Positions 1,935 to 28,132 of a DNA stretch of 64,000 bases are shown one piece after another. The translations under genes were made by a program, and so were the position numbers. This DNA comes from Candidatus Brocadiia bacterium (lineage in GTDB: Bacteria > Planctomycetota > Brocadiia > CAIUPP01), in assembly GCA_050015075.1 (NCBI GenBank), contig JBEKCB010000002.1, positions 1 through 64,000 of the forward strand, written 5' to 3'. Under the pieces are notes generated by a model. It had not been told where the DNA came from and did not search any database. It saw nothing but the letters and a program-made list of their open reading frames with translations. Within the stretch, counting starts at the first letter, position 1. Every line of letters starts with the position of its first letter.

Positions 1935-2690
1935 GTGGAAATCATCGCTCATCGCGGCGCGTCGCGCTCCGCGCCGGAGAATACCCTGCCGGCCTTCCGC
2001 CTGGCCTGGGAGCAAGGCGCGGACGTCGCGGAACTGGACGTCCGTTTGTCGCGGGACGGCCGGGTCGTCGTCATCCACGACGCGACCGCGCGCCGGACTG
2101 GCGGGCTGAACCGCAAGGTCTGCGGCCTGACGCTGGCCGAACTGCGGGCGCTGGACTTCGGCCGATGGAAAGGCGCGAAATGGGCCGGCACGCGGATCCC
2201 GACGCTGGACGAAGTCGCGCAGACCGTCCCCGCCGGAAAGCGCCTGCTCATCGAGATCAAATGCGGTCCCGAGATTGTCCCCGCGCTGCGGAAAGTCCTC
2301 GACGACCCGAGCATGCGTCGCCGATTCATCCTCCAGAGTTTCTCTCTGCCGACCATGAAGGCCGTGAAGCGGAAATTTCCCGGCGTCGAAGCCGGCTGGC
2401 TCTGTGCCCTGAGACAGCCGGCCGCGCCGAAGGCCGCCGCGGAAGCCGACGCGCTGATCCGGCGGGCGGTCGAGGCCGGCATGAACGGACTCCATCTCCG
2501 CGGGTCGCCGTTCATTGACGCGCGCATGGTGAATCAAGTGAAGGTCGCGCACCTGAAATTCCGCGTTTGGACGGTGGATTCCGTGCCCGTCGCGCAGTGG
2601 CTGGCCGGGCTGGGAATTGACGGGATCATCACCAATCGCCCCGGCTGGCTGCGCGCGCGCCTCGACCTGCGCAGGCGCGGTCACTCATAA
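1935..2690 (+). CDS. Glycerophosphodiester phosphodiesterase
   Basis: IIAHRGAS..APENTL, ELDVRLSRDG, IHD, IEIK, VWTVD, DGIITNRP motifs; GTG start inferred. Confidence 0.93.
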   Translation: MEIIAHRGASRSAPENTLPAFRLAWEQGADVAELDVRLSRDGRVVVIHDATARRTGGLNRKVCGLTLAELRALDFGRWKGAKWAGTRIPTLDEVAQTVPAGKRLLIEIKCGPEIVPALRKVLDDPSMRRRFILQSFSLPTMKAVKRKFPGVEAGWLCALRQPAAPKAAAEADALIRRAVEAGMNGLHLRGSPFIDARMVNQVKVAHLKFRVWTVDSVPVAQWLAGLGIDGIITNRPGWLRARLDLRRRGHS

Positions 2691-2944
2691 TGCGTCCACA
2701 TGCGGATGACCTTGACCGTGCGGATTTCGGGGAGTACCTGGTAGACGAGGCGATGGTGAATGTTGATGCGCCTGGAATAGGCGCCGGCCAGGTCGCCGAC
2801 GAGCTTCTCGAATGAGGGCGGGTTCTGAAACGGGTCGCGGCGCAGCAGTTCGAGCAGCGGCTCGGCCTTGGGGCGAAGGCCGGACTTCGCGAGCTTGCGG
2901 GCGTCGCGACGGGCCTGGCTGGTGAACACCAGTTCCCAGCTCAC
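2681..2944 (-). CDS. yoeB: Txe/YoeB-family toxin
   Basis: EKLVGDLAGAYSRRINIHHRLVYQV...MWTHYE; GTG start overlaps the antitoxin stop. Confidence 0.93.
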   Translation of the reverse strand: MSWELVFTSQARRDARKLAKSGLRPKAEPLLELLRRDPFQNPPSFEKLVGDLAGAYSRRINIHHRLVYQVLPEIRTVKVIRMWTHYE

Positions 2945-3183
2945 CACTTCAGCCCCCGGCGGCACTTCGACACGGGCGTCTTGAGGCCGCGCCGGATGGA
3001 CTCGCGCATGCCCGGAATGGAGAGAAGGTAAAGCGTCTCCTGAATGGCGCTCCAGTCCTCCTCCGCCACGAGGACCGCGCTCGCCCGCTTCCCGGTGATT
3101 GCGATCGGCTGATGCGAAGCGGCCGTTTCCTCAAGCAGCCGGTACAACCGGGCACGGGCCTGGCTGGCTTTCAACGTTGTCAT
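2941..3183 (-). CDS. yefM: Phd/YefM-family antitoxin
   Basis: ASQARARLYRLL...PIAITGKR..AVLVAEEDWSAIQETLYLLSIPGMRESI. Confidence 0.93.
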   Translation of the reverse strand: MTTLKASQARARLYRLLEETAASHQPIAITGKRASAVLVAEEDWSAIQETLYLLSIPGMRESIRRGLKTPVSKCRRGLKW

Positions 3184-3204
3184 GGTTCGTCACCTCCGGC
3201 TCCG

Positions 3205-3233
3205 ATGGTACGTTATATCGTACGTCATGTCAA
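3205..3233 (-). promoter_or_regulatory. sigma70 promoter with GTACG-N6-CGTAC operator for yefM-yoeB
   Basis: Minus strand TTGACA-17bp-TACCAT; palindrome at 3208-3223 overlaps the spacer and -10. Confidence 0.75.
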
Positions 3234-3268
3234 GCGCGGATTTCTTCCCGTCAGCGCGGTTGAAAAGG

Positions 3269-4246
3269 CTACTGCCGATCGGTCCTGATAATCTGCATAA
3301 CCCGCCCGGCCAGTTCCCAAGTGCGTTCGTCCTGCATGAGCTTGCCTAAATCTCCGTCGTTCAGCGTCTCCTGAAACGCCTTGTCCCGCAGGAGGTCCTG
3401 GACTTCCGGGTCAGCGCCGATCTGAGTCATTTTTCGGCCGACGCGCGCGAGTTGGTCCGCCGCCTGCTCGCGGGTGGAGGCGGCGTCCGACTCCGCCGGG
3501 AGAAGCCCCAGGTCCCTGGCGCAGCGGAGGAACTCGGGATCTTCCATGAGCCGATTCCAGCGCGGGTTGCCCTTGATCGCCTCCGCGTCGCCCTTGAAAA
3601 CGGCGTCGGTAAATTGAGCGTCCCGGGCGAGCGCGGCAACTTCGGGATTCTGCTTGATGCGTTGGACGTCCTCGACGGCCATCTTCGGGTCGCTCACGGA
3701 CCGGGCGACGACCCGGGACAGAGCCGGGTCGTTCGTCGCGGCCCGCGCGAAAAGGTAGGCTTCGGACCCGATGATGAGGCTGGAGAGGCGGGAGGCAGCG
3801 GAGTCCCGCATATCGGGCCATGCCGTCGCTCCCGGCGTCAGGCCGGCCGCGTTATATATCCAGACCAGTGCGGCCGCCATGAGCATGCCGACGCACGCGC
3901 CGAGGGCTGCGCCCGACAGTTTATCCGCCCAGGGATATTTCGGTTTCGGGGCAGGCTGCGCCTTCCGGGATTTGTTCCGCCGGCGGATGAGATGCACGAG
4001 AAGGAAAAACATGACGTAGACGACGAGGAAGACAAACGTCGCGCCAAGCGCGCAGGCGAGGACCAGCGGTATGCCGAAGGACTCATTCAGCCGCCGCCCT
4101 GCCCAGCCCCAGAGCAGCCAGGCCGCGAAGAAGGCCCCGGCAAGACCGAGCAGCCCCAACAGGCTCGAGGTCAGACCACGCATGAAGCCCCGGACGGCGT
4201 AGACGGCGACCACTGCAAGCGTTACCACGTCTGCGAGCACGAGCAT
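3269..4246 (-). CDS. CvpA-family membrane protein with soluble C-terminal extension
   Basis: N-terminal helices with RGFMRGLTSSLLGL and DKLSGAALG CvpA-like motifs. Confidence 0.75.
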   Translation of the reverse strand: MLVLADVVTLAVVAVYAVRGFMRGLTSSLLGLLGLAGAFFAAWLLWGWAGRRLNESFGIPLVLACALGATFVFLVVYVMFFLLVHLIRRRNKSRKAQPAPKPKYPWADKLSGAALGACVGMLMAAALVWIYNAAGLTPGATAWPDMRDSAASRLSSLIIGSEAYLFARAATNDPALSRVVARSVSDPKMAVEDVQRIKQNPEVAALARDAQFTDAVFKGDAEAIKGNPRWNRLMEDPEFLRCARDLGLLPAESDAASTREQAADQLARVGRKMTQIGADPEVQDLLRDKAFQETLNDGDLGKLMQDERTWELAGRVMQIIRTDRQ

Positions 4247-4293
4247 GCCTCGTCTCCGTCGCCGCGGCGCCTTCTCTTCCGCGCTCCTTGAAG

Positions 4294-5601
4294 CTACAGC
4301 TCCGCCGCGGCGAGTGAGGCCAGCTCGCTGCGCTCGGAGCGCGTCAGCGTCACGTGGCCGAAGAGCGCCTTGCCTTTGAGCCGCTCGGCGGTGTACGTCA
4401 GCCCGTTGCTGCTCGCGTCGAGGTACGGGTTGTCAATCTGGTACGGGTCGCCGGTGAGCACCACCTTGGTATCCTCTCCGGCGCGGCTGATGATCGTCTT
4501 GACCTCGTGCGGGGTGAGGTTCTGCGCCTCGTCCACGATCATGAACTCGCGCGGGATGCTGCGGCCGCGGATGTACGTGAGCGCCTCGAGCTGGATGACG
4601 CCCGAGCGCAGGAAGTCCTCGACCTTCTTCCCGGGCTCGGCCTTCGCGCCCTTGAGCGTGAGGAGGTATTCGAGGTTGTCGTAGATCGGCAGCATCCAGT
4701 GGCCGAGCTTCTCCTCGACGGAGCCGGGCAGGTAGCCGATGTCCTTGCCGAGCGGCATGATCGGCCGCGAGACGAGCACCTTGTCGTAGCGGCGCTCGTG
4801 CATGACCTGCGCCAGCCCGCAGGCGAGCGCCAGGAGCGTCTTGCCCGTGCCGGCCTGGCCGACGAGGGTGACGAGCTGGATTTCCTCGCTGCAGAGCAGC
4901 TCGATCGCCATGCGCTGCTGCATGTTCCGCGCGGCGACGCCCATCGGTTTCATTTCGCCGTACCGGAGCAGGCCGACGGTCTTGCCGTCCGGCGCACAGC
5001 GCGCCAGCGAGGTGTGCTTCGGGTTCGCCGCGTCGCGGAAGACGCCGAACTCGTTCGGGATCAGGCCGAGACCGTCGTTCGGCAGGAACTTCCGCGCGTG
5101 GAGTTGGTCAATGGAGTCGCCCGGGATCGCCACCTCGCGCCAGCCGCAGTACAAGGCGTCGAAGTCCACCTTCTCCTTCTCGAAGTCCATCGTCTTGATC
5201 CCGAGCGCGTCGGCCTTGATGCGGGCGTTCACGTCCTTCGAGACGAAGATCACCGGCCGGCCCGAGTTCATGATCTCATTGGCGACGGCGACAATGCGGT
5301 TGTCCGGGAGGTTGAGCCGCAGGCCGGTGCCTTCGAGCGAGCCGGGCTCGAGCGCGACGCGGACCGTTCCGCCGGACTCTTTGAGCGTCACGCCTTCGCG
5401 CAGGCTGCCCTGGCCGCGGAGACGGTCGAGCGTGCGGACCACCTGCCGCGCGTTGCGCCCAAGCTCGTTGTTCTGTCCCTTGAACCGGTCCAGCTCCTCG
5501 ATCACGTCCATCGGGATCACCACCTCGTTGTCCGCGAACGACTCGATCGCGGCGGGGTTATGAAGCAGCACGTTCGTGTCCAGGACGAAGCTTTTCTTCA
5601 T
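4294..5601 (-). CDS. PIN-PhoH family ATPase (YlaK-like)
   Basis: FVLDTNVLLH PIN start; GQAGTGKT Walker A; YIRGRSI; DEAQNLT; GDPYQID; SERSELA. Confidence 0.95.
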   Translation of the reverse strand: MKKSFVLDTNVLLHNPAAIESFADNEVVIPMDVIEELDRFKGQNNELGRNARQVVRTLDRLRGQGSLREGVTLKESGGTVRVALEPGSLEGTGLRLNLPDNRIVAVANEIMNSGRPVIFVSKDVNARIKADALGIKTMDFEKEKVDFDALYCGWREVAIPGDSIDQLHARKFLPNDGLGLIPNEFGVFRDAANPKHTSLARCAPDGKTVGLLRYGEMKPMGVAARNMQQRMAIELLCSEEIQLVTLVGQAGTGKTLLALACGLAQVMHERRYDKVLVSRPIMPLGKDIGYLPGSVEEKLGHWMLPIYDNLEYLLTLKGAKAEPGKKVEDFLRSGVIQLEALTYIRGRSIPREFMIVDEAQNLTPHEVKTIISRAGEDTKVVLTGDPYQIDNPYLDASSNGLTYTAERLKGKALFGHVTLTRSERSELASLAAAEL

Positions 5602-20404: not shown

Positions 20405-21003
20405 ATTTCGATGACCTTTGTCCCGCAATGCCTGCAGAGTCCCTTGTCCGGCACTCCGGATAATCCCGCTATGGCGGTTATTTCCCTGCCGCAAGCCAGA
20501 CATTGCAGACCCAGCTTCCTGATGCGTCGCTTCCACGCCTGCCGGAGGAAGAAAAAATAGCCCGCGAAAAAGACGAGGATGCCGATAGCTGCCAAACCCT
20601 GAATCCAACTCTCCGGCTTTGCCCTGTCCAGGTAAAAAGCGAGGCGCGCGCAACCTAACGCCCCTCCGACTAAAAGGAGCGTCGAAACCCAAAATTGCCG
20701 CCGTCCTTCCCGTCTTAAAACCTCGCTCCTCGCAATGAACTCATCCCTCGTCATAACCGGCACACTCTGGGGATGCTCAGGCTGCAGAAACCAGCCCTTG
20801 CGCGCAAAGAGACGGAGCATATTCCAAAGCAACCTGGGAAGCGCCCAGGCTATGACGACTCCAACCGCAAGACTGATCGCGCATCCGATGATTATTTTCA
20901 GCGGGCTGCGCGCCTCCTTGCCCCAACCTATGCTGATTCCAAATCCCGCGCTGGGAATCATGACGTAAAGCAAGAGAAACAATGTGACTCGCTGACGGGT
21001 CAT
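20401..21003 (-). CDS. Hypothetical membrane protein with C-terminal Zn-ribbon
   Basis: About four hydrophobic segments; CLACG...CRHCG; more AT-rich than neighbours. Confidence 0.6.
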   Translation of the reverse strand: MTRQRVTLFLLLYVMIPSAGFGISIGWGKEARSPLKIIIGCAISLAVGVVIAWALPRLLWNMLRLFARKGWFLQPEHPQSVPVMTRDEFIARSEVLRREGRRQFWVSTLLLVGGALGCARLAFYLDRAKPESWIQGLAAIGILVFFAGYFFFLRQAWKRRIRKLGLQCLACGREITAIAGLSGVPDKGLCRHCGTKVIEI

Positions 21004-21148: not shown

Positions 21149-23884
21149 TTACTTCGACTTCTTCTCTTCGAGCGCGGCGTGCGCGGCCGCGAGGCGCGCG
21201 ATCGGCACGCGGAACGGCGAGCAACTGACGTAGTTCATGCCGACGCGATGGCAGAACTTGACCGATTCGTAATCGCCGCCGTGCTCGCCGCAGATGCCCA
21301 CCTTCAGCTTGGCCCGAGTGCTGCGGCCGCGGTCAATGCCCATCCGGATGAGCTGGCCGACGCCTTCCTGGTCGAGCGACTGGAACGGGTCTTCCGGCAG
21401 CAGTTTCTTCTTCAGGTACTCCGGGACGAACGAGCCGATGTCGTCGCGGCTGAAGCCGAACGTCATCTGCGTCAGGTCGTTCGTGCCGAAGCTGAAGAAC
21501 TCCGCCGTCTCGGCCATCTTGTCGGCCGTCAGCGCCGCGCGCGGCAGCTCGATCATCGTGCCGATCAGGTAGTCGAGCTTCTTGAGCTTGTACTTCGCCT
21601 TCACCTCGATGACGACCCGGTCAATGATCTTCTTCTGGTCGTCGAGTTCGGACTTCGCGCAGGTGACCGGGATCATGATCTCCGGCAGGACGTTCTTGAC
21701 CTTCTTGTCGAGCGCCACTTCGGCGGCCGCTTCGAGGATGGCGCGGACCTGGTACTCGGTGACTTCCGGATAGGTGACGCCGAGGCGGACGCCGCGGTGT
21801 CCCATCATCGGGTTGGTCTCGTGCAGGCCTTCGGCGCGCTTCTGGAGTTCCTCCATGGAGATGTTGAGCGCGCGGGCCAACTCCTCCAGGCGGGCGGTGT
21901 CCTTCGGGACGAATTCGTGAAGCGGCGGGTCGAGCGTGCGGATCGTCACCGGATGGCCCTGCATCGCCTCCATCGTGGCCTTCATGTCGGCCTTCATGAA
22001 CGGGTACAGCTCGTCGAGGGCCTTGCGGCGTTCTTCGAGCGTGCTGCTGGCGATCATCTTGCGCAGCAGGAAGAGCGGCCGGTCGGCGCCTTCGCCGTAG
22101 AACATGTGCTCGGTGCGGAACAGGCCGATGCCCTCGGCGCCGAACTCCAGCGCCTTCCGGGCGTCCTGCGGCGTGTCGGCGTTCGTGCGCACGCCGAGCT
22201 TGCGGAAGCTGTCCACCCATTTCATGAACTGGCGGAAGTCCTTGTTGTTCCGGAGGTCCGGGTCCACCAGCGGCAGCTTGCCTTCGTAAACCGTGCCGGA
22301 GGTGCCGTTGAGAGTGATCCACGCGCCTTCCGCGATCTCCTTGCCGCCCGCCTTGAGGACCTTGCGGTCCATGTCCACCGCGATGCCGGAGCAGCCGACG
22401 ATGCAGCATTTGCCCCAGCCGCGCGCGACCAGCGCGGCGTGGCTGGTCATGCCGCCCTTGGCGGTGAGGATCGCCTGCGCGGCGTGCATGCCGTGGACGT
22501 CCTCCGGGCTGGTCTCGGTGCGGACGAGGATGACCTTCTCATGGAGTTCCTTCCCGCGGCGGGCGGCCTCGTCGGCGGTGAAGACCACCATGCCGTGCGC
22601 GCCGCCGGGGCCGGCCGGCAGGCCCTTGGCCAGCGGCTTGCTCTCGCGTTCCGCCTTCGGGTCCACCATCGGCAGCAGGCACTGCACCAGCGCGTCGGCC
22701 TTGACGCGCAGCACCGCCTCTTCCGGCTTGATCAGCTTCTCGAGGCCCATGTCCACCGCGATCTTCACCGCGGCCACGCCGTTACGCTTTCCGACGCGGC
22801 ACTGGAGCATGAACAGGCGGCCTTCCTCGATGGTGAACTCGATGTCGAGCATATCGCGGTAGTGCTTCTCGAGCTTCTGCTGGATCGCGTTGAGCTGCTT
22901 GTAGGCCGCCGGCATCGCCTTCTCCAGGCTGGTCAGCCCCTTCGTGTGAGCGGTCTTACCCGCTTCGTTCACCGGCAGCGGCGTGCGGATGCCGGCCACG
23001 ACGTCTTCGCCCTGCGCGTTCGGGAGCCACTCGCCGTAGAAGATGTTCCGTCCCGTAGCGGGATCGCGCGTGAAGCCCACGCCCGTCGCGGAGGTCTCGC
23101 CGGTGTTGCCGAAGACCATCGTCTGGACGGTGACCGCCGTTCCCCATTCGTCCGGGATCCTCTCGATGCGGCGATACTCCACCGCGCGGCGGCCGTTCCA
23201 GCTCTGGAACACGGCGCTCACGCTGCCCCACAACTGGTCCATCGGCTCGTCCGGGAACGGCTTGCCCAGGACCTTGAGCACGCGCGCTTTGAACTGCGCG
23301 GCGAGTTCCTTCAGGTCGTCGGCGGTCAGCTCGGTATCGAGCTTCACGCCCTTCTTCTCCTTCATCTGGTGCATGATCGCTTCGAGCTGCTTGCGGATGC
23401 CCTGCTCGCCGGCGGGCTCGATGCCGGCGGCCTTCTCCATCACCACGTCGGAGTACATCATGATCAGGCGGCGATAGGCGTCGTAGACGAAGCGCGGGTT
23501 GTTGGTCTTGGCGATCAAGCCGGGGATCGTGCTCGGGGCGAGGCCGACGTTGAGGATCGTCTCCATCATCCCCGGCATCGAGGCGCGCGCGCCGGAGCGC
23601 ACGGAGACCAGCAGCGGGTCCTTCGGGTCGCCGAACTTCTTCTCCATGATCCGTTCGGTCTTCTTCAAGTTGTCCTCGACCTGCTTCTTCAGCTCGGCCG
23701 GGTACTTGCCCTTGTTGCGGTAATAGAGCGTGCAGACCTCGGTGGTGATCGTGAAGCCCGGCGGCACGGGCAGGCCGAGGTTCGCCATCTCGGCGAGGTT
23801 GGCGCCTTTGCCGCCGAGGAGATTCTTCATCTCCGACTTGCCTTCCGCCTTGCCGCCGCCGAAAAAGTAAACGTATTTGGCCAT
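21149..23884 (-). CDS. ppdK: Pyruvate, phosphate dikinase
   Basis: LLGGKGANLAEM, PLLVSVRSGA, GGMTSHAA, SFGTNDLTQ, GICGEHGG, YVSCSPFRVP. Confidence 0.98.
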   Translation of the reverse strand: MAKYVYFFGGGKAEGKSEMKNLLGGKGANLAEMANLGLPVPPGFTITTEVCTLYYRNKGKYPAELKKQVEDNLKKTERIMEKKFGDPKDPLLVSVRSGARASMPGMMETILNVGLAPSTIPGLIAKTNNPRFVYDAYRRLIMMYSDVVMEKAAGIEPAGEQGIRKQLEAIMHQMKEKKGVKLDTELTADDLKELAAQFKARVLKVLGKPFPDEPMDQLWGSVSAVFQSWNGRRAVEYRRIERIPDEWGTAVTVQTMVFGNTGETSATGVGFTRDPATGRNIFYGEWLPNAQGEDVVAGIRTPLPVNEAGKTAHTKGLTSLEKAMPAAYKQLNAIQQKLEKHYRDMLDIEFTIEEGRLFMLQCRVGKRNGVAAVKIAVDMGLEKLIKPEEAVLRVKADALVQCLLPMVDPKAERESKPLAKGLPAGPGGAHGMVVFTADEAARRGKELHEKVILVRTETSPEDVHGMHAAQAILTAKGGMTSHAALVARGWGKCCIVGCSGIAVDMDRKVLKAGGKEIAEGAWITLNGTSGTVYEGKLPLVDPDLRNNKDFRQFMKWVDSFRKLGVRTNADTPQDARKALEFGAEGIGLFRTEHMFYGEGADRPLFLLRKMIASSTLEERRKALDELYPFMKADMKATMEAMQGHPVTIRTLDPPLHEFVPKDTARLEELARALNISMEELQKRAEGLHETNPMMGHRGVRLGVTYPEVTEYQVRAILEAAAEVALDKKVKNVLPEIMIPVTCAKSELDDQKKIIDRVVIEVKAKYKLKKLDYLIGTMIELPRAALTADKMAETAEFFSFGTNDLTQMTFGFSRDDIGSFVPEYLKKKLLPEDPFQSLDQEGVGQLIRMGIDRGRSTRAKLKVGICGEHGGDYESVKFCHRVGMNYVSCSPFRVPIARLAAAHAALEEKKSK

Positions 23885-24140
23885 GGGTTTGTCCTCCGGC
23901 GAATGTTACCGTGCGCCGTACTCGGCGCACTGTTGGTGACCAGGGATTCACAACGAACGCGCAGGCCGGAATCCATCGAGCCTGAGAAAGCGGAAGGATA
24001 GCACATCAAGGCCGGTCATTGCAACCGCCCGGGTTGGATTGGCGGCGGCAGAGGAGAGAGGTACAATCTGCCGAAATTCGACAAAGACAACCGCCTCGAT
24101 GTGGGTCTTAACGGTGAAGGCCTTCATTCACTGGTGACAT

Positions 24141-25304
24141 ATGGAAGAACTGCGTGACTGGGTCCTCCAGGCCCGGCAGGGTGAACTGGAGAGCTACGGG
24201 AAGATCGTCCGGCGCTTTCAGGACATGGCTTACGGGTATGCGTACAGCCTCCTGAGCGACTTCCACCTAGCCGAGGACGCGGCGCAGGAGGCGTTCATCG
24301 AGGCGTTCCGCGACCTGGCCGACCTGCGGACGCCGGAAGCCTTTCCGGGCTGGTTCCGGAAGATCATTTTCAAGCAGTGCGACCGAATTATCCGCAGAAA
24401 ACGGCCGCAAGGTCTGTCTCCCGAGGTGGAAGGACGATTGCCGTCCCGGGAGCCGGAGCCGGGCGATATCGCGGCGAAGAAAGAAATGGCCGAATCAGTC
24501 CTGCGGGCCATTCGGACACTTCCCGAGCCCGAGCGCACCGTCACGACTCTCTTCTATATCAACGGTTACTCGCAAAACGACATCGCCGACTTCCTTGAAG
24601 TGCCGGCCACGACGGTCAACAACCGTCTGCACAGTTCAAGGACGCGGCTGAAGGAAAGGATGATGAACATGGTCACGCATGAACTTCGTAAGAATACCTT
24701 GCCGGAAGACTTCCGTCAAAGGGTACTCACACTGGCGCAAATTGCCGCTGCCGGACTGGGGCGCGTTTTCCTGATCCACTTCAGCAACGGGGTGCGTGTG
24801 CGCGCACGAGTGGACGAAGTGATCCAAGGAGATGTCACGGGGCGAACTCTGGCGTTGGTCTGCGGCCCTACCGATATTTCTCTGCCCAACGAGCCGCAAG
24901 GGCTGCGCCATCTGGAGTCCTACCTGCTGATTCCTGACTCCGTTGTCACCATCTGCGTCGCACCTGAGGCAGAAAAACCTGGCCTGTACGAGCGGATGGG
25001 GGCTTCCGCACAGGCGGGGCCGGAGCCTTCCTACGCGTCCGCCCCTGTATTCCGGGGGCCTCTGGAAGTTCTGCCGGAAGGATTTGGGTTCGTGCGGCTT
25101 GGCAAGCGCCGGCACCCCTACGAGTATCGTAACGAGAAAAGCGAGAAGCACGTCAACCGCGCAGCCCCGAAAGATGTCTTTGTTTCGGCAGATCTAATCC
25201 AGGACCATGGTCTCAAGACGGGCGACAAGGTCGAATGCACAGTTCGGTCTCCTATCGGGAGCGAGCGATTCCGCAGCGCAGCGACCCTCAAGCGGGCTTT
25301 ATAG
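24141..25304 (+). CDS. ECF sigma factor with C-terminal Rho-like RNA-binding (OB) domain
   Basis: Region 2 AEDAAQEAF/AFPGWFRKI; region 4 YSQNDIADFLEVPATTVNNRLH; C-terminal GPLEVLPEGFGFVR...DVFVS..I...GLKTGDKV...RSPIGSERF. Confidence 0.88.
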   Translation: MEELRDWVLQARQGELESYGKIVRRFQDMAYGYAYSLLSDFHLAEDAAQEAFIEAFRDLADLRTPEAFPGWFRKIIFKQCDRIIRRKRPQGLSPEVEGRLPSREPEPGDIAAKKEMAESVLRAIRTLPEPERTVTTLFYINGYSQNDIADFLEVPATTVNNRLHSSRTRLKERMMNMVTHELRKNTLPEDFRQRVLTLAQIAAAGLGRVFLIHFSNGVRVRARVDEVIQGDVTGRTLALVCGPTDISLPNEPQGLRHLESYLLIPDSVVTICVAPEAEKPGLYERMGASAQAGPEPSYASAPVFRGPLEVLPEGFGFVRLGKRRHPYEYRNEKSEKHVNRAAPKDVFVSADLIQDHGLKTGDKVECTVRSPIGSERFRSAATLKRAL

Positions 25305-25414
25305 CTGCGGTCTAACAACACGGCAAGCCCTGGCAGCCTCCGTACGTTCCGAAGTAAATCCGGCATGAGAACCAATCTGCCGTCTTGCGCGACATCGGCC
25401 AAGCCCCACCCGCA

Positions 25415-25524
25415 TCATTTGCCGTCTGGCGCCGAGCCGCCGAACTCGAAGGCGTAGAGCGTGCGGTATTCTCCGCCCTGCGCGATCAGCTCGGCGTGCG
25501 TGCCCTGGCCGACCATGCGGCCGT
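25415..25524 (-). repeat. Diverged direct copy of the last 110 bp of the ABC transporter gene (26327-26436)
   Basis: 11 mismatches in 110 nt by manual alignment; translates GRMVGQGTHAELIAQGGEYRTLYAFEFGGSAPDGK*. Confidence 0.95.
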
Positions 25525-25642
25525 TACTCCTGCAAGACTTCAAGCGCTCGCTTGCGTTGTTGCTCATTTAAGTCCATAAGTTCACTTCCCTCCAAAGTAG
25601 AGAAAGGCACCGAGTACCGGAGAGTTCCGGGAGAAAAACGGG

Positions 25643-25921
25643 TCAGGAGACTTTTTCGGACTTTCTCCGGTCTTCTTCTTTCTGGATATCTTCCCAGGGA
25701 ATGCCTTTCCCCGCGCGCAGGCCCGCCCGTGCTTGGGCGACTCTTTTCAGGAACCGCGGGTCGTGCAACAAGCGATACTCGAACCAATCGTCTTCCGTTT
25801 CAAAACCAATCAGCACCCCTGCAGGCTTCCCGTGTTTCGTGATCACAATGTCTTCGTGAGCCGCCTTGCGAAGGAAACCGGACAGTTGGTCTTTGACCTG
25901 GGCGAGTGATGCGGTCTTCAT
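25643..25921 (-). CDS. Phd/YefM-family antitoxin
   Basis: MKTASLAQVKDQLSGFL...EDIVITKHGKPAGVLI. Confidence 0.92.
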   Translation of the reverse strand: MKTASLAQVKDQLSGFLRKAAHEDIVITKHGKPAGVLIGFETEDDWFEYRLLHDPRFLKRVAQARAGLRAGKGIPWEDIQKEEDRRKSEKVS

Positions 25922-26211
25922 GACGGAACACCTTTCTGGCGAAGCCAATCGAAGGTCCATCTCTTTTCAACGATTCCGATTATCTTCACTTCGTCGGCAA
26001 CTACGTCGTAGAACACGCGAACCTCATCCACGCGGAGCCGGTATTGAGGGTGCTGAAGTTCACGCAGCCGCTTAATCCGGCTCTTGCTTGTTGCCGTCGG
26101 CTGATGTTGAAGGTGGCGGTTAATCGCATCGCGCACAGCCGCCCGAATGCCGGCAGGCAGCCCGTCGTAATCTTCCTTCGCTTCGGCCGAAAATGTTATT
26201 CGGTGCCTCAT
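25918..26211 (-). CDS. RelE/ParE-family toxin (toxin-first order)
   Basis: SKSRIKRLR...QYRLRVDEVRVFYDV; promoter TTGACC-17bp-TATATT at 26249-26221; palindrome TGGCTA/TAGCCA at 26214-26230. Confidence 0.9.
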   Translation of the reverse strand: MRHRITFSAEAKEDYDGLPAGIRAAVRDAINRHLQHQPTATSKSRIKRLRELQHPQYRLRVDEVRVFYDVVADEVKIIGIVEKRWTFDWLRQKGVPS

Positions 26212-26326
26212 TCTGGCTAGAATATAGCCATATTGTGACCGGAGGTCAATGGGCATCGTTCATAAAGCGCCAACGTCACTATCTCCCCCTGTCCGGCCTA
26301 CGGCGGAACTGCCAGGCCCGGCCGCA

Positions 26327-28132
<1,806 letters not shown>

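Follow-up and report, generated by a model that had tools for sequence, protein, structure and literature searches.

Known means of controlling bacterial sigma factors are anti-sigma proteins, proteolysis, phosphorylation, metals and small fused sensor domains. The gene described here lies in a stretch of 64,000 nucleotides (positions 1 to 64,000 of contig JBEKCB010000002.1, assembly GCA_050015075.1, from a Candidatus Brocadiia bacterium of the Planctomycetota), which as a whole will be called the window. It encodes a sigma factor of the extracytoplasmic function (ECF) type whose sigma part is followed by two further domains, one predicted to be Sm-like and one of the kind found at the primary RNA-binding site of Rho.

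ECF sigma factors with fused C-terminal extensions are described in passages of a classification (PMC7826278) and of a review (PMC8999054), the examples being ECF41 with a SnoaL-like, ECF42 with a TPR and ECF238 with a Cys-rich extension. According to the passages of the classification (PMC7826278), ECFs that share a type of extension cluster together, with one type per sigma clade. A description of a sigma factor fused to a Rho-type or Sm-type domain was not found in the literature searched, these classification and review passages included; other supplements may list such architectures. The fused-extension ECF sigma factor is already known as a kind. The pair of an Sm-like and a Rho-type OB domain is unprecedented in the searched literature.

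Domain organisation of the protein

The open reading frame (ORF) starts with ATG and comprises 387 codons without internal stops, and its translation is identical to the peptide quoted in an earlier note on this DNA, which had been made from the letters alone. By domain content the 387-aa protein is an ECF (group 4) member of the sigma-70 family. As the earlier note had proposed, sigma regions 2 and 4 are complete: Sigma70_r2 and Sigma70_r4_2 both score above their Pfam cut-offs (Table 1), and the NCBIfam model TIGR02937 (sigma70-ECF) is passed with 76.3 bits against a cut-off of 42.9. No Pfam match to Sigma70_r1 or Sigma70_r3 was obtained in the 387-aa protein at E<=10. None of the NCBIfam equivalog models for named sigma factors reached its cut-off with the protein, the best being SigW with 92.7 against a required 209. 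The N-terminal 178 residues represent an ordinary sigma-2/sigma-4 module, which is expected to bind the core of RNA polymerase and a promoter of the ECF type. A short linker connects it with a module that is apparently confined to this subfamily.

The extension C-terminal to sigma-4 comprises about 210 aa. The proposal that it ends in the RNA-binding domain of Rho and that the Rho ATPase is missing was borne out by the Pfam scan. Rho_RNA_bind (PF07497) matches aa 305-380 (model positions 2-61 of 73) with an E value of 2.5e-12 and 46.9 bits (cut-off 27). No RecA-type ATPase is present: the OB domain is followed by just 7 residues, and neither ATP-synt_ab (the Rho ATPase) nor Rho_N (PF07498) gave a Pfam match in the 387-aa protein at E<=10. 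The part between sigma-4 and the OB domain had been called an unknown beta-rich domain. The word "unknown" no longer holds, since in the predicted model this part shows an Sm/LSm-like fold.

Table 1. Features of the sigma factor gene and of the region upstream of it (positions in the window)
Feature	Position	Strand	Basis or remarks
Promoter-like element	24079..24129	+	CGACAAAG (-35-like, 24079-24086), 16-nt spacer, GGGTC (-10-like, 24103-24107), then conserved block TTAACGGTGAAGGCCTTC
Complete gene for a protein of 387 aa with ECF sigma, Sm-like and Rho-type OB parts	24141..25304	+	Pfam and NCBIfam
Sigma region 2, aa 22-88	24204..24404	+	Pfam PF04542 Sigma70_r2, E 2.4e-10, 40.5 bits, cut-off 24
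Sigma region 4, aa 118-170	24492..24650	+	Pfam PF08281 Sigma70_r4_2, E 1.7e-10, 40.8 bits, cut-off 25.7; also PF04545
Linker after sigma-4, aa 175-195, motif LPEDF	24663..24725	+	Family matches stop at about aa 195-200
Sm/LSm-like domain, aa 196-278, one helix and five bent strands	24726..24974	+	Predicted model, structural matches
OB/cold-shock-like domain of the Rho primary-binding-site type, aa 300-387	25038..25301	+	Pfam PF07497

The Rho-type OB domain and its RNA pocket

In a phmmer comparison with solved structures, E. coli Rho was aligned through its residues 53-111 to aa 306-378 (E 7e-5), the window's protein having an insertion of 14 residues. These inserted residues, about 14 in number, form a beta-hairpin that lies within aa 320-343 (aa 325-341 by the model) and may add surface to the OB domain. 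The structural searches led to the same protein: the VIA search returned 1a8v_A (Z 12.2, root-mean-square deviation (rmsd) 1.5 Å over 66 residues) and 1pv4_E (Z 12.2 over 73 residues), and a search made without Foldseek returned 1a62_A, the N-terminal domain of Rho, with Z 12.1. The VIA alignments begin at Rho residue 43-49, and across both searches the OB domain is 31-33% identical to the Rho N-terminal domain over 66-75 residues. Other cold-shock and OB domains scored lower, for example that of RNase R (Z 8.0) and the Unr CSD (6.8).

In Rho this OB domain makes up the primary site, specific for pyrimidines, at which single-stranded RNA or DNA is bound. According to passages of PMC10491184, F64 and Y80 of Rho contact two nucleotides at the core primary site, and an extended site that includes R87 and R88 raises the affinity, the R88E exchange abolishing the binding of rut RNA. 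We transferred the Rho numbering from the phmmer alignment and checked the pocket residues in 20 homologues. The equivalents of D78, R102 and E108 are kept in all 20, that of F64 in 19, and those of F62, R66 and R109 in 18 each. At the position of Y80 the residue is aromatic or His (Y in 16, F in 2 and H in 2 homologues), and at that of Y110 it is F in 11 and Y in 9. Judged from the aligned residues, the core pyrimidine pocket of Rho is kept and the extended site is lost, and the conserved core pocket fits binding of RNA or single-stranded DNA (ssDNA).

The genome contains an ordinary Rho elsewhere, a 502-aa ORF in which Rho_RNA_bind scores 115.5 bits. The OB domain of the sigma protein is only 35% identical to it, which rules out that it is a recent copy of the host's own Rho. 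The gene for the ordinary Rho (G000:C4:128201-128422; L023 622-2130, minus strand) would encode as many as 502 aa; if the first ATG is used, the Rho_N/OB part is preceded by a long extension at the N-terminus.

The Sm-like middle domain

Modelling of aa 196-387 on the basis of 20 aligned homologues gave a predicted local distance difference test (pLDDT) value of 79.8, with 72-85 for aa 206-265 and 67 for aa 196-205. Both structural searches divided this model into two domains. For the first of them the VIA search returned 4c92_G (Z 9.8, 73 residues aligned of a 75-residue chain) and the archaeal Sm protein 1i8f_C (Z 9.7, rmsd 1.9 Å, 68 of 68 residues), and the search independent of Foldseek returned 3swn_A (Z 9.5), 1n9r_A (8.9) and 1loj_A (8.7). 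Overall the Sm/LSm matches extend over 65-76 residues, that is over near-complete Sm chains, with Z values of 8-9.8, which is little above the tool's stated background of 7-8. Matches to WYL domains were weaker than those to Sm proteins (PafBC 6sj9_B, Z 7.2; BrxR 7qfz_A, Z 7.1; 9fnd_X, Z 6.6). A Pfam match to the LSM, Hfq, ROF or WYL families was not found in the 387-aa protein at E<=10. The middle domain would be Sm-like by its predicted fold and not a member of a named Sm family.

When four copies of aa 196-290 were co-folded in three runs, the score for self-association was 0.78, compared with 0.00 for the best of three controls. The pLDDT of the partners was 76 and the runs shared at least 90% of their contacts. 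In the tool's calibration, 20 of 30 same-chain pairs of known structure and 1 of 23 proteins solved as single chains attained the mark. The predicted interface is formed by the conserved strands aa 208-218 and 261-274. These models support self-association of the Sm-like domain.

P0149 and P0194, two other members of the sigma family, match slightly past aa 200 and were considered as further carriers of the Sm-like domain. They were rejected because they show no similarity to aa 196-387.

Distribution and loss of the gene

The gene is real, accessory and patchy in its distribution. Among the 120 best-listed proteins (90%-identity clusters), 18 possess the full architecture, the window protein included, with query coverages of 94-100% and identities of 43-100%. 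Two of these 18 are named as proteins of metagenome-assembled genomes of Phycisphaerae. In a library of 50%-identity representatives, 4 of the best 150 matches extend into the Sm-OB part. Two loci were confirmed from 113 pattern matches in species-representative genomes and 10 from 424 pattern matches in metagenome contigs, one of the latter being the same record as a genome locus. Three of the 10 metagenome loci, on separate contigs, are 100% identical to the window's gene. Across 19 homologues the whole three-part protein is 42-68% identical, indicating purifying conservation. The sigma module itself (E<=1e-30) was present in 8 of 41 genomes, the window's own included, and in none of the three other genomes of the same family. 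The window's genome has one copy of it, the next ECF paralogue being 31-35% identical.

How the gene may be lost can be seen in G001, a genome of the same genus. The flanks of the locus are 94-95% identical to the window, and between them there remain the promoter-like element, almost intact, and roughly 66 nt from the start of the sigma gene (82% identity over window positions 24052-24204). It is without the rest of the sigma gene and without the toxin-antitoxin pair. From the matching flanks and the remnant it follows that the sigma gene was present here in the ancestor of the genus and was lost in the sister species. The remnant locus, the 18 listed clusters and the three contigs of 100% identity together rule out that the fusion is a misassembly or a singleton, a doubt that the earlier note had raised.

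In the G001 locus (L043, G001:C65:28500-37500), which is bounded by PPDK and the ABC exporter, the remnant lies at about 2240-2395 and other genes at 2561-5436. Between the gene for pyruvate phosphate dikinase (PPDK) and the remnant there is a conventional ECF sigma gene (252 aa), followed by a gene for a 705-aa membrane protein with a weak LolA-like match.

Several searches were directed at the C-terminal module alone. A word-indexed search with aa 196-387, which is insensitive, found no stand-alone or differently fused Sm-OB module among 409 candidates of 105-336 aa, and among 2264 candidates of greater length it found only two, the window protein and P0002. A scan of viral_contigs with an alignment of the C-terminal module gave 18 pattern matches and no relatives, and a fold search of BFVD gave no matches at E<=0.001. 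The ESM Atlas yielded nothing usable by features and only Rho_RNA_bind clusters by structure.

A truncated copy was found on a metagenome contig of 110,486 bp (L035, contig positions 75745-90329). The ORF (L035 6761-7798) encodes 345 aa with Sigma70_r4_2, the Sm-like part and Rho_RNA_bind (E 3.4e-12) and has no sigma-2. With about 30% G+C, co-directional genes, an NAPRTase and an intein-bearing RtcB, and with PHROG matches (E 2e-31 to 7e-39) of three ORFs flanking the copy, the contig is a probable large phage. The local G+C content of the ORF is 0.49-0.535, compared with 0.26-0.39 around it, and the ORF has a low-G+C, Cys-rich tail. The host-like G+C content suggests a recent capture from a host. 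A truncated copy borne by a probable phage hints at a role in phage-host conflict.

A sigma family with exchangeable C-terminal domains

The sigma module (the first 178-197 residues) belongs to a family with 920 representatives at E<=1e-30. Its members are 50-91% identical to the window's protein in this part, and their C-termini are mutually unrelated. A non-sigma Pfam domain (E<=1e-5) was present in 43 of 84 scanned representatives, and about 18 kinds were found. The most frequent were the BFN nuclease domain and ankyrin (7 of 84 each), followed by PheRS-core-like, T2SSF and FliG domains (5 of 84 each); TPR alone occurred in 2, and APH, radical SAM, histidine kinase, ATP-synt_ab, PQQ propeller, PilM, NPCBM, full-length citrate synthase, DnaB_C, methyltransferase, GNAT and BNR occurred once each. 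In the set of 120 best-listed proteins as many as 47 carry the PheRS-like domain. The same domain (tRNA-synt_2d) stands in place of the Sm-OB module in proteins whose sigma module is 83-87% identical to that of the window, and it is also found on a more distant family member in the genome of a relative (L019). Paralogues with differing C-termini may reside in one genome, as in G033 (T2SSF-like, unassigned and HEAT) and G011 (HEAT and PheRS-like).

Among the fusions, P0164 (567 aa) contains a full-length citrate synthase (E 1.7e-126), P0172 (841 aa) a DnaB_C helicase domain, P0191 (685 aa) T2SSF together with a full T2SSE ATPase, and P0140 (480 aa) an ATPase domain of the ATP-synt_ab type. In family members with HEAT repeats (625-634 aa) the gene has a tRNA-like element some 30 nt upstream, located on the gene's own strand (L020 1998-2067 and L017 2129-2197, both on the minus strand). 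These elements score 53.2 and 36.2 bits with the Rfam tRNA model (cut-off 29) and are reported by ARAGORN as 'tRNA-???' with no anticodon. A similar sequence is located upstream in L021.

It might be asked whether the Rho-type proteins descend from a single fusion. P0004, P0005, P0008 and P0010, whose C-termini are DUF4037, PheRS-like, DUF1080 or unassigned, are near-identical to the window protein through ...RLKERMMNMV (aa 178) and unrelated to it beyond, which by comparison of the sequences puts the breakpoint of module exchange at about aa 178. In the Rho-type homologue P0002 the divergence is about even along the whole length. A tree was calculated from 56 sigma modules, each cut to 200 residues: the 18 Rho-type ones and 38 others from the 120 best-listed proteins. 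In it the window's module belongs to a clade of 8 with full support in the SH-like approximate likelihood ratio test (SH-aLRT 100) and is the sole Rho-type member of it, its clade-mates having PheRS-like, DUF4037, DUF1080 or unassigned C-termini. Seven changes of the Rho label are needed on the tree, at least three of which are forced by well-supported branches, and a single clade of all Rho-type modules was rejected by the approximately unbiased (AU) test (p-AU 0.0008). The lack of monophyly, taken together with the breakpoint at aa 178, means that either the modules have recombined or the sigma modules have been homogenised within lineages. One conserved output module would thus have been joined by recombination to dozens of input domains, against the rule by which the extension follows the clade.

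Possible function of the Sm-OB module

The reading we prefer, to which we give about an even chance, is that the protein is a one-component ECF sigma factor and that its Sm-OB module serves as a sensor for single-stranded nucleic acid rich in pyrimidines. The sigma module would be the output. The Sm-OB module would be the input domain because the C-terminal domains of the family are interchangeable, as in a modular sensor-output design, and its ligand would be a nucleic acid because the pocket is conserved. Because the extended site is lost and self-association is predicted, binding would depend on avidity: self-association of the Sm-like kind would gather several weak pyrimidine pockets and so provide avidity for unstructured C/U-rich single-stranded nucleic acid. 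Candidate ligands would be naked, untranslated or foreign RNA, or ssDNA, and their binding would alter the availability or activity of the attached sigma module. The WYL domains of PafBC-type regulators, which have an Sm fold, couple single-stranded nucleic acid to transcription, and control of sigma by the Sm-OB module might be likened to them. A one-component mechanism is supported by the absence of an anti-sigma gene among the neighbours, which are PPDK, Phd/YefM, a weak ParE-like ORF and an ABC exporter; the earlier note was right in this respect too. The binding of RNA or ssDNA, the direction of control and the regulon are what we infer.

A number of observations weigh against this reading. 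The window's own copy has phenylalanine in place of both pocket tyrosines. R87 and R88 of the extended primary site of Rho are replaced by Q and D, so that a single OB domain probably binds weakly. The predicted contacts of the Sm-like domain include symmetric pairs (72 with 72, 68 with 69) and therefore suggest a two-fold dimer and not a head-to-tail canonical Sm ring. The self-association tool was calibrated with two copies (and with alignments of its own) and not with four. The full-length model was mediocre, with a pLDDT of 68 and a predicted template-modelling score (pTM) of 0.31; pLDDT was 70-89 across aa 1-90, the part with sigma region 2, and 48-66 in sigma-4. In this model the C-terminal module is not packed with confidence against the sigma core, so that autoinhibition is unsupported. 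The sigma gene is evidently dispensable in the sister species G001. As to the regulon, a search of the window's own genome with four strict or relaxed promoter patterns found the strict motif only before the sigma gene, and the remaining sites were chance-like, lying inside genes or far from them. On the supporting side, two metatranscriptome runs from two studies each contained one contig identical to part of the gene without any difference (25077-25316, 240 nt, and 24476-24640, 165 nt), a weak hint that the gene is expressed, but RNA libraries can contain DNA and the contigs reveal neither strand nor ends. A further run, X3, was rejected as evidence of expression, since it contained only a relative at 90-95% likeness and is probably DNA.

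Alternatively the Sm-OB module might itself be the output and the protein a co-transcriptional effector. The OB domain would then seize the first C/U-rich stretch of the nascent transcript, and sigma would be kept on the elongating polymerase and/or rut-like sites would be masked from Rho, resulting in sigma-coupled anti-termination. The conservation of the core Rho pocket is in line with this idea, the normal Rho of the genome is a conceivable competitor for the same RNA signal, and an OB domain only 35% identical to that Rho would be an old and separately maintained copy. We nevertheless regard it as unlikely, because relatives carry the sigma module fused to enzymes, repeats and ATPases that are unable to act on nascent RNA, because the promoter-pattern search in the genome yielded no target genes and because the extended RNA site required for tight rut binding is missing. 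Another explanation would dispense with a nucleic-acid ligand: the module could be a structural or dimerising appendage or an autoinhibitory plug, with the conserved residues serving its packing. Self-association is the sole property of the module supported by computation here, the gene was lost without replacement in the same-genus genome G001, and the family seems tolerant of almost any C-terminal domain. The residues of the Rho pocket, however, are surface-exposed in Rho and are invariant or nearly so in 20 homologues that are 42-68% identical. Folding alone hardly accounts for this, and we consider an appendage without a ligand less probable still.

Improbable to a slightly greater degree is the possibility that the protein mimics the N-terminal domain of Rho, the OB domain having been kept as an integrated decoy that binds not RNA but the protein partners of Rho. 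Candidates for such partners would be Rof- or Hfq-type Sm proteins, YihE-like kinases and phage anti-Rho factors such as Psu. The Sm-like domain would occupy or guard the OB domain in cis, and a Rho-targeting partner would free or block sigma. Rof binds the N-terminal domains of Rho (passages of PMC10491184), which provides a precedent, between separate proteins, for the pairing of an Sm fold with the Rho OB domain. Many partner domains of the family copy portions of central machines (PheRS core, DnaB_C, Clp_N, FliG, PilM, T2SSE/F and citrate synthase), and the probable phage carries its sigma-2-less copy at host-like local G+C. Against this, the middle domain has no sequence similarity to the Rof or Hfq families (Pfam E<=10), and Rof is not among the structural-search matches listed, which does not exclude a likeness to Rof. 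The residues that contact RNA are the best conserved ones, whereas those of the extended site, which in Rho also bind Rof according to passages of PMC10491184, are not kept. Ankyrin, HEAT, TPR, BNR and methyltransferase partners do not fit a decoy either. Extended to the whole family, the idea becomes that of a guard or decoy system, which we rate just as doubtful. Repeated exchange would have fused a near-invariant sigma module to pieces copied from central machines (the Rho RNA-binding domain, PheRS core, DnaB, Clp_N, FliG, PilM, T2SS E/F and citrate synthase), and engagement of a copy by a phage factor or by abnormal RNA would release sigma and so start a response. By analogy, the Sm-like domain would hold the Rho-like pocket as Rof holds Rho, and the sigma-2-less phage copy would serve as a counter-measure, by poisoning the oligomer or by soaking up the signal. 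In a milder form, the protein may compete with Rho for rut-type RNA at the genes started by sigma and thereby cause anti-termination.

Should the module bind RNA, the protein would provide a direct link from the signal that is read by Rho, naked and C-rich RNA, to the initiation of transcription. It could let single-stranded RNA steer the choice of genes in transcription. It would also be a natural and compact RNA-responsive sigma factor for synthetic circuits, and it would open the way into a sigma family that is large, unstudied and present in Phycisphaerae, Planctomycetota and further phyla.

Upstream element and genomic locus

The promoter-like layout listed in Table 1 was found in the window and in 10 of 17 other upstream regions of the family, where it begins 60-72 nt before the start codon. 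Its consensus is [xCAAAG, CGAAC or GGTATC]-N16-[GGGxC, GGCTC or CGAC], followed by a TTA....TAGAAGGCC block, and it is independent of the type of C-terminal domain. Judging from these sequences, the element looks like an ECF-type and possibly autoregulated promoter followed by a conserved leader.

The leader block (..GAAGGCCTTC.., which in the window and in L011 forms a perfect palindrome of 10 nt) is located at window positions 24116-24140 and is also present in the loci L011, L013 and L031. In some members of the sigma family it overlaps short upstream reading frames. The short frame of the window, GTG AAG GCC TTC ATT CAC TGG TGA, ends 4 nt 5' of the ATG, and in L031 the leader block is the start of the protein itself (MEG...). 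Rfam gave no match at E<=0.1 in window positions 23800-25700.

Upstream of the sigma gene lies the PPDK gene on the opposite strand. Downstream, likewise on the minus strand, come an antitoxin of the Phd/YefM type, an ORF with a weak ParE-like match and an ABC exporter. The first two directly follow the sigma gene (25643-26256, minus strand) and score 35.2 bits (Phd/YefM) and 22.8 bits (ParE-like ORF, cut-off 23). Positions 24000-26500 have a G+C content of 0.54-0.62, compared with mostly 0.62-0.73 in the flanks (0.56 in the bin 20500-20999). A conserved gene neighbourhood was not found across six loci, those of five other organisms and that of the window, the neighbours including fmt/rsmB, a ParA-like gene, dnaE and phage genes.

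Comparison with known systems

Each part of the protein resembles a described system and departs from it. With Rho it shares the fold of the OB domain, a Pfam match above cut-off and the conserved core pocket. It differs in being without the three-helix bundle at the N-terminus, the RecA-type ATPase and the connector, in the inserted hairpin of about 14 residues and in the replacement of R87/R88. The helix and the five-stranded bent barrel of Sm/LSm/Hfq proteins, Rof and WYL domains are predicted for the window protein, and so is self-association. In contrast to Sm/LSm/Hfq proteins its middle domain has no LSM, Hfq or ROF sequence match, the predicted contacts look two-fold and not ring-like, and the domain is fused between sigma and the OB domain. 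The PheRS-like (tRNA-synt_2d) fusions belong to the same family of sigma modules but carry another C-terminal module than Sm and Rho OB.

The closest described relatives in design are ECF41, ECF42 and ECF238. Like these, the window protein has a sigma-2/sigma-4 core, an extension of more than 50 aa and no nearby anti-sigma gene, and it would carry its own control domain. It differs from them in that its extension consists of Sm-like and Rho OB folds, which the passages cited above do not name as types of extension, and in that its tight sigma clade bears many types of extension, a single origin of the Rho type being rejected.

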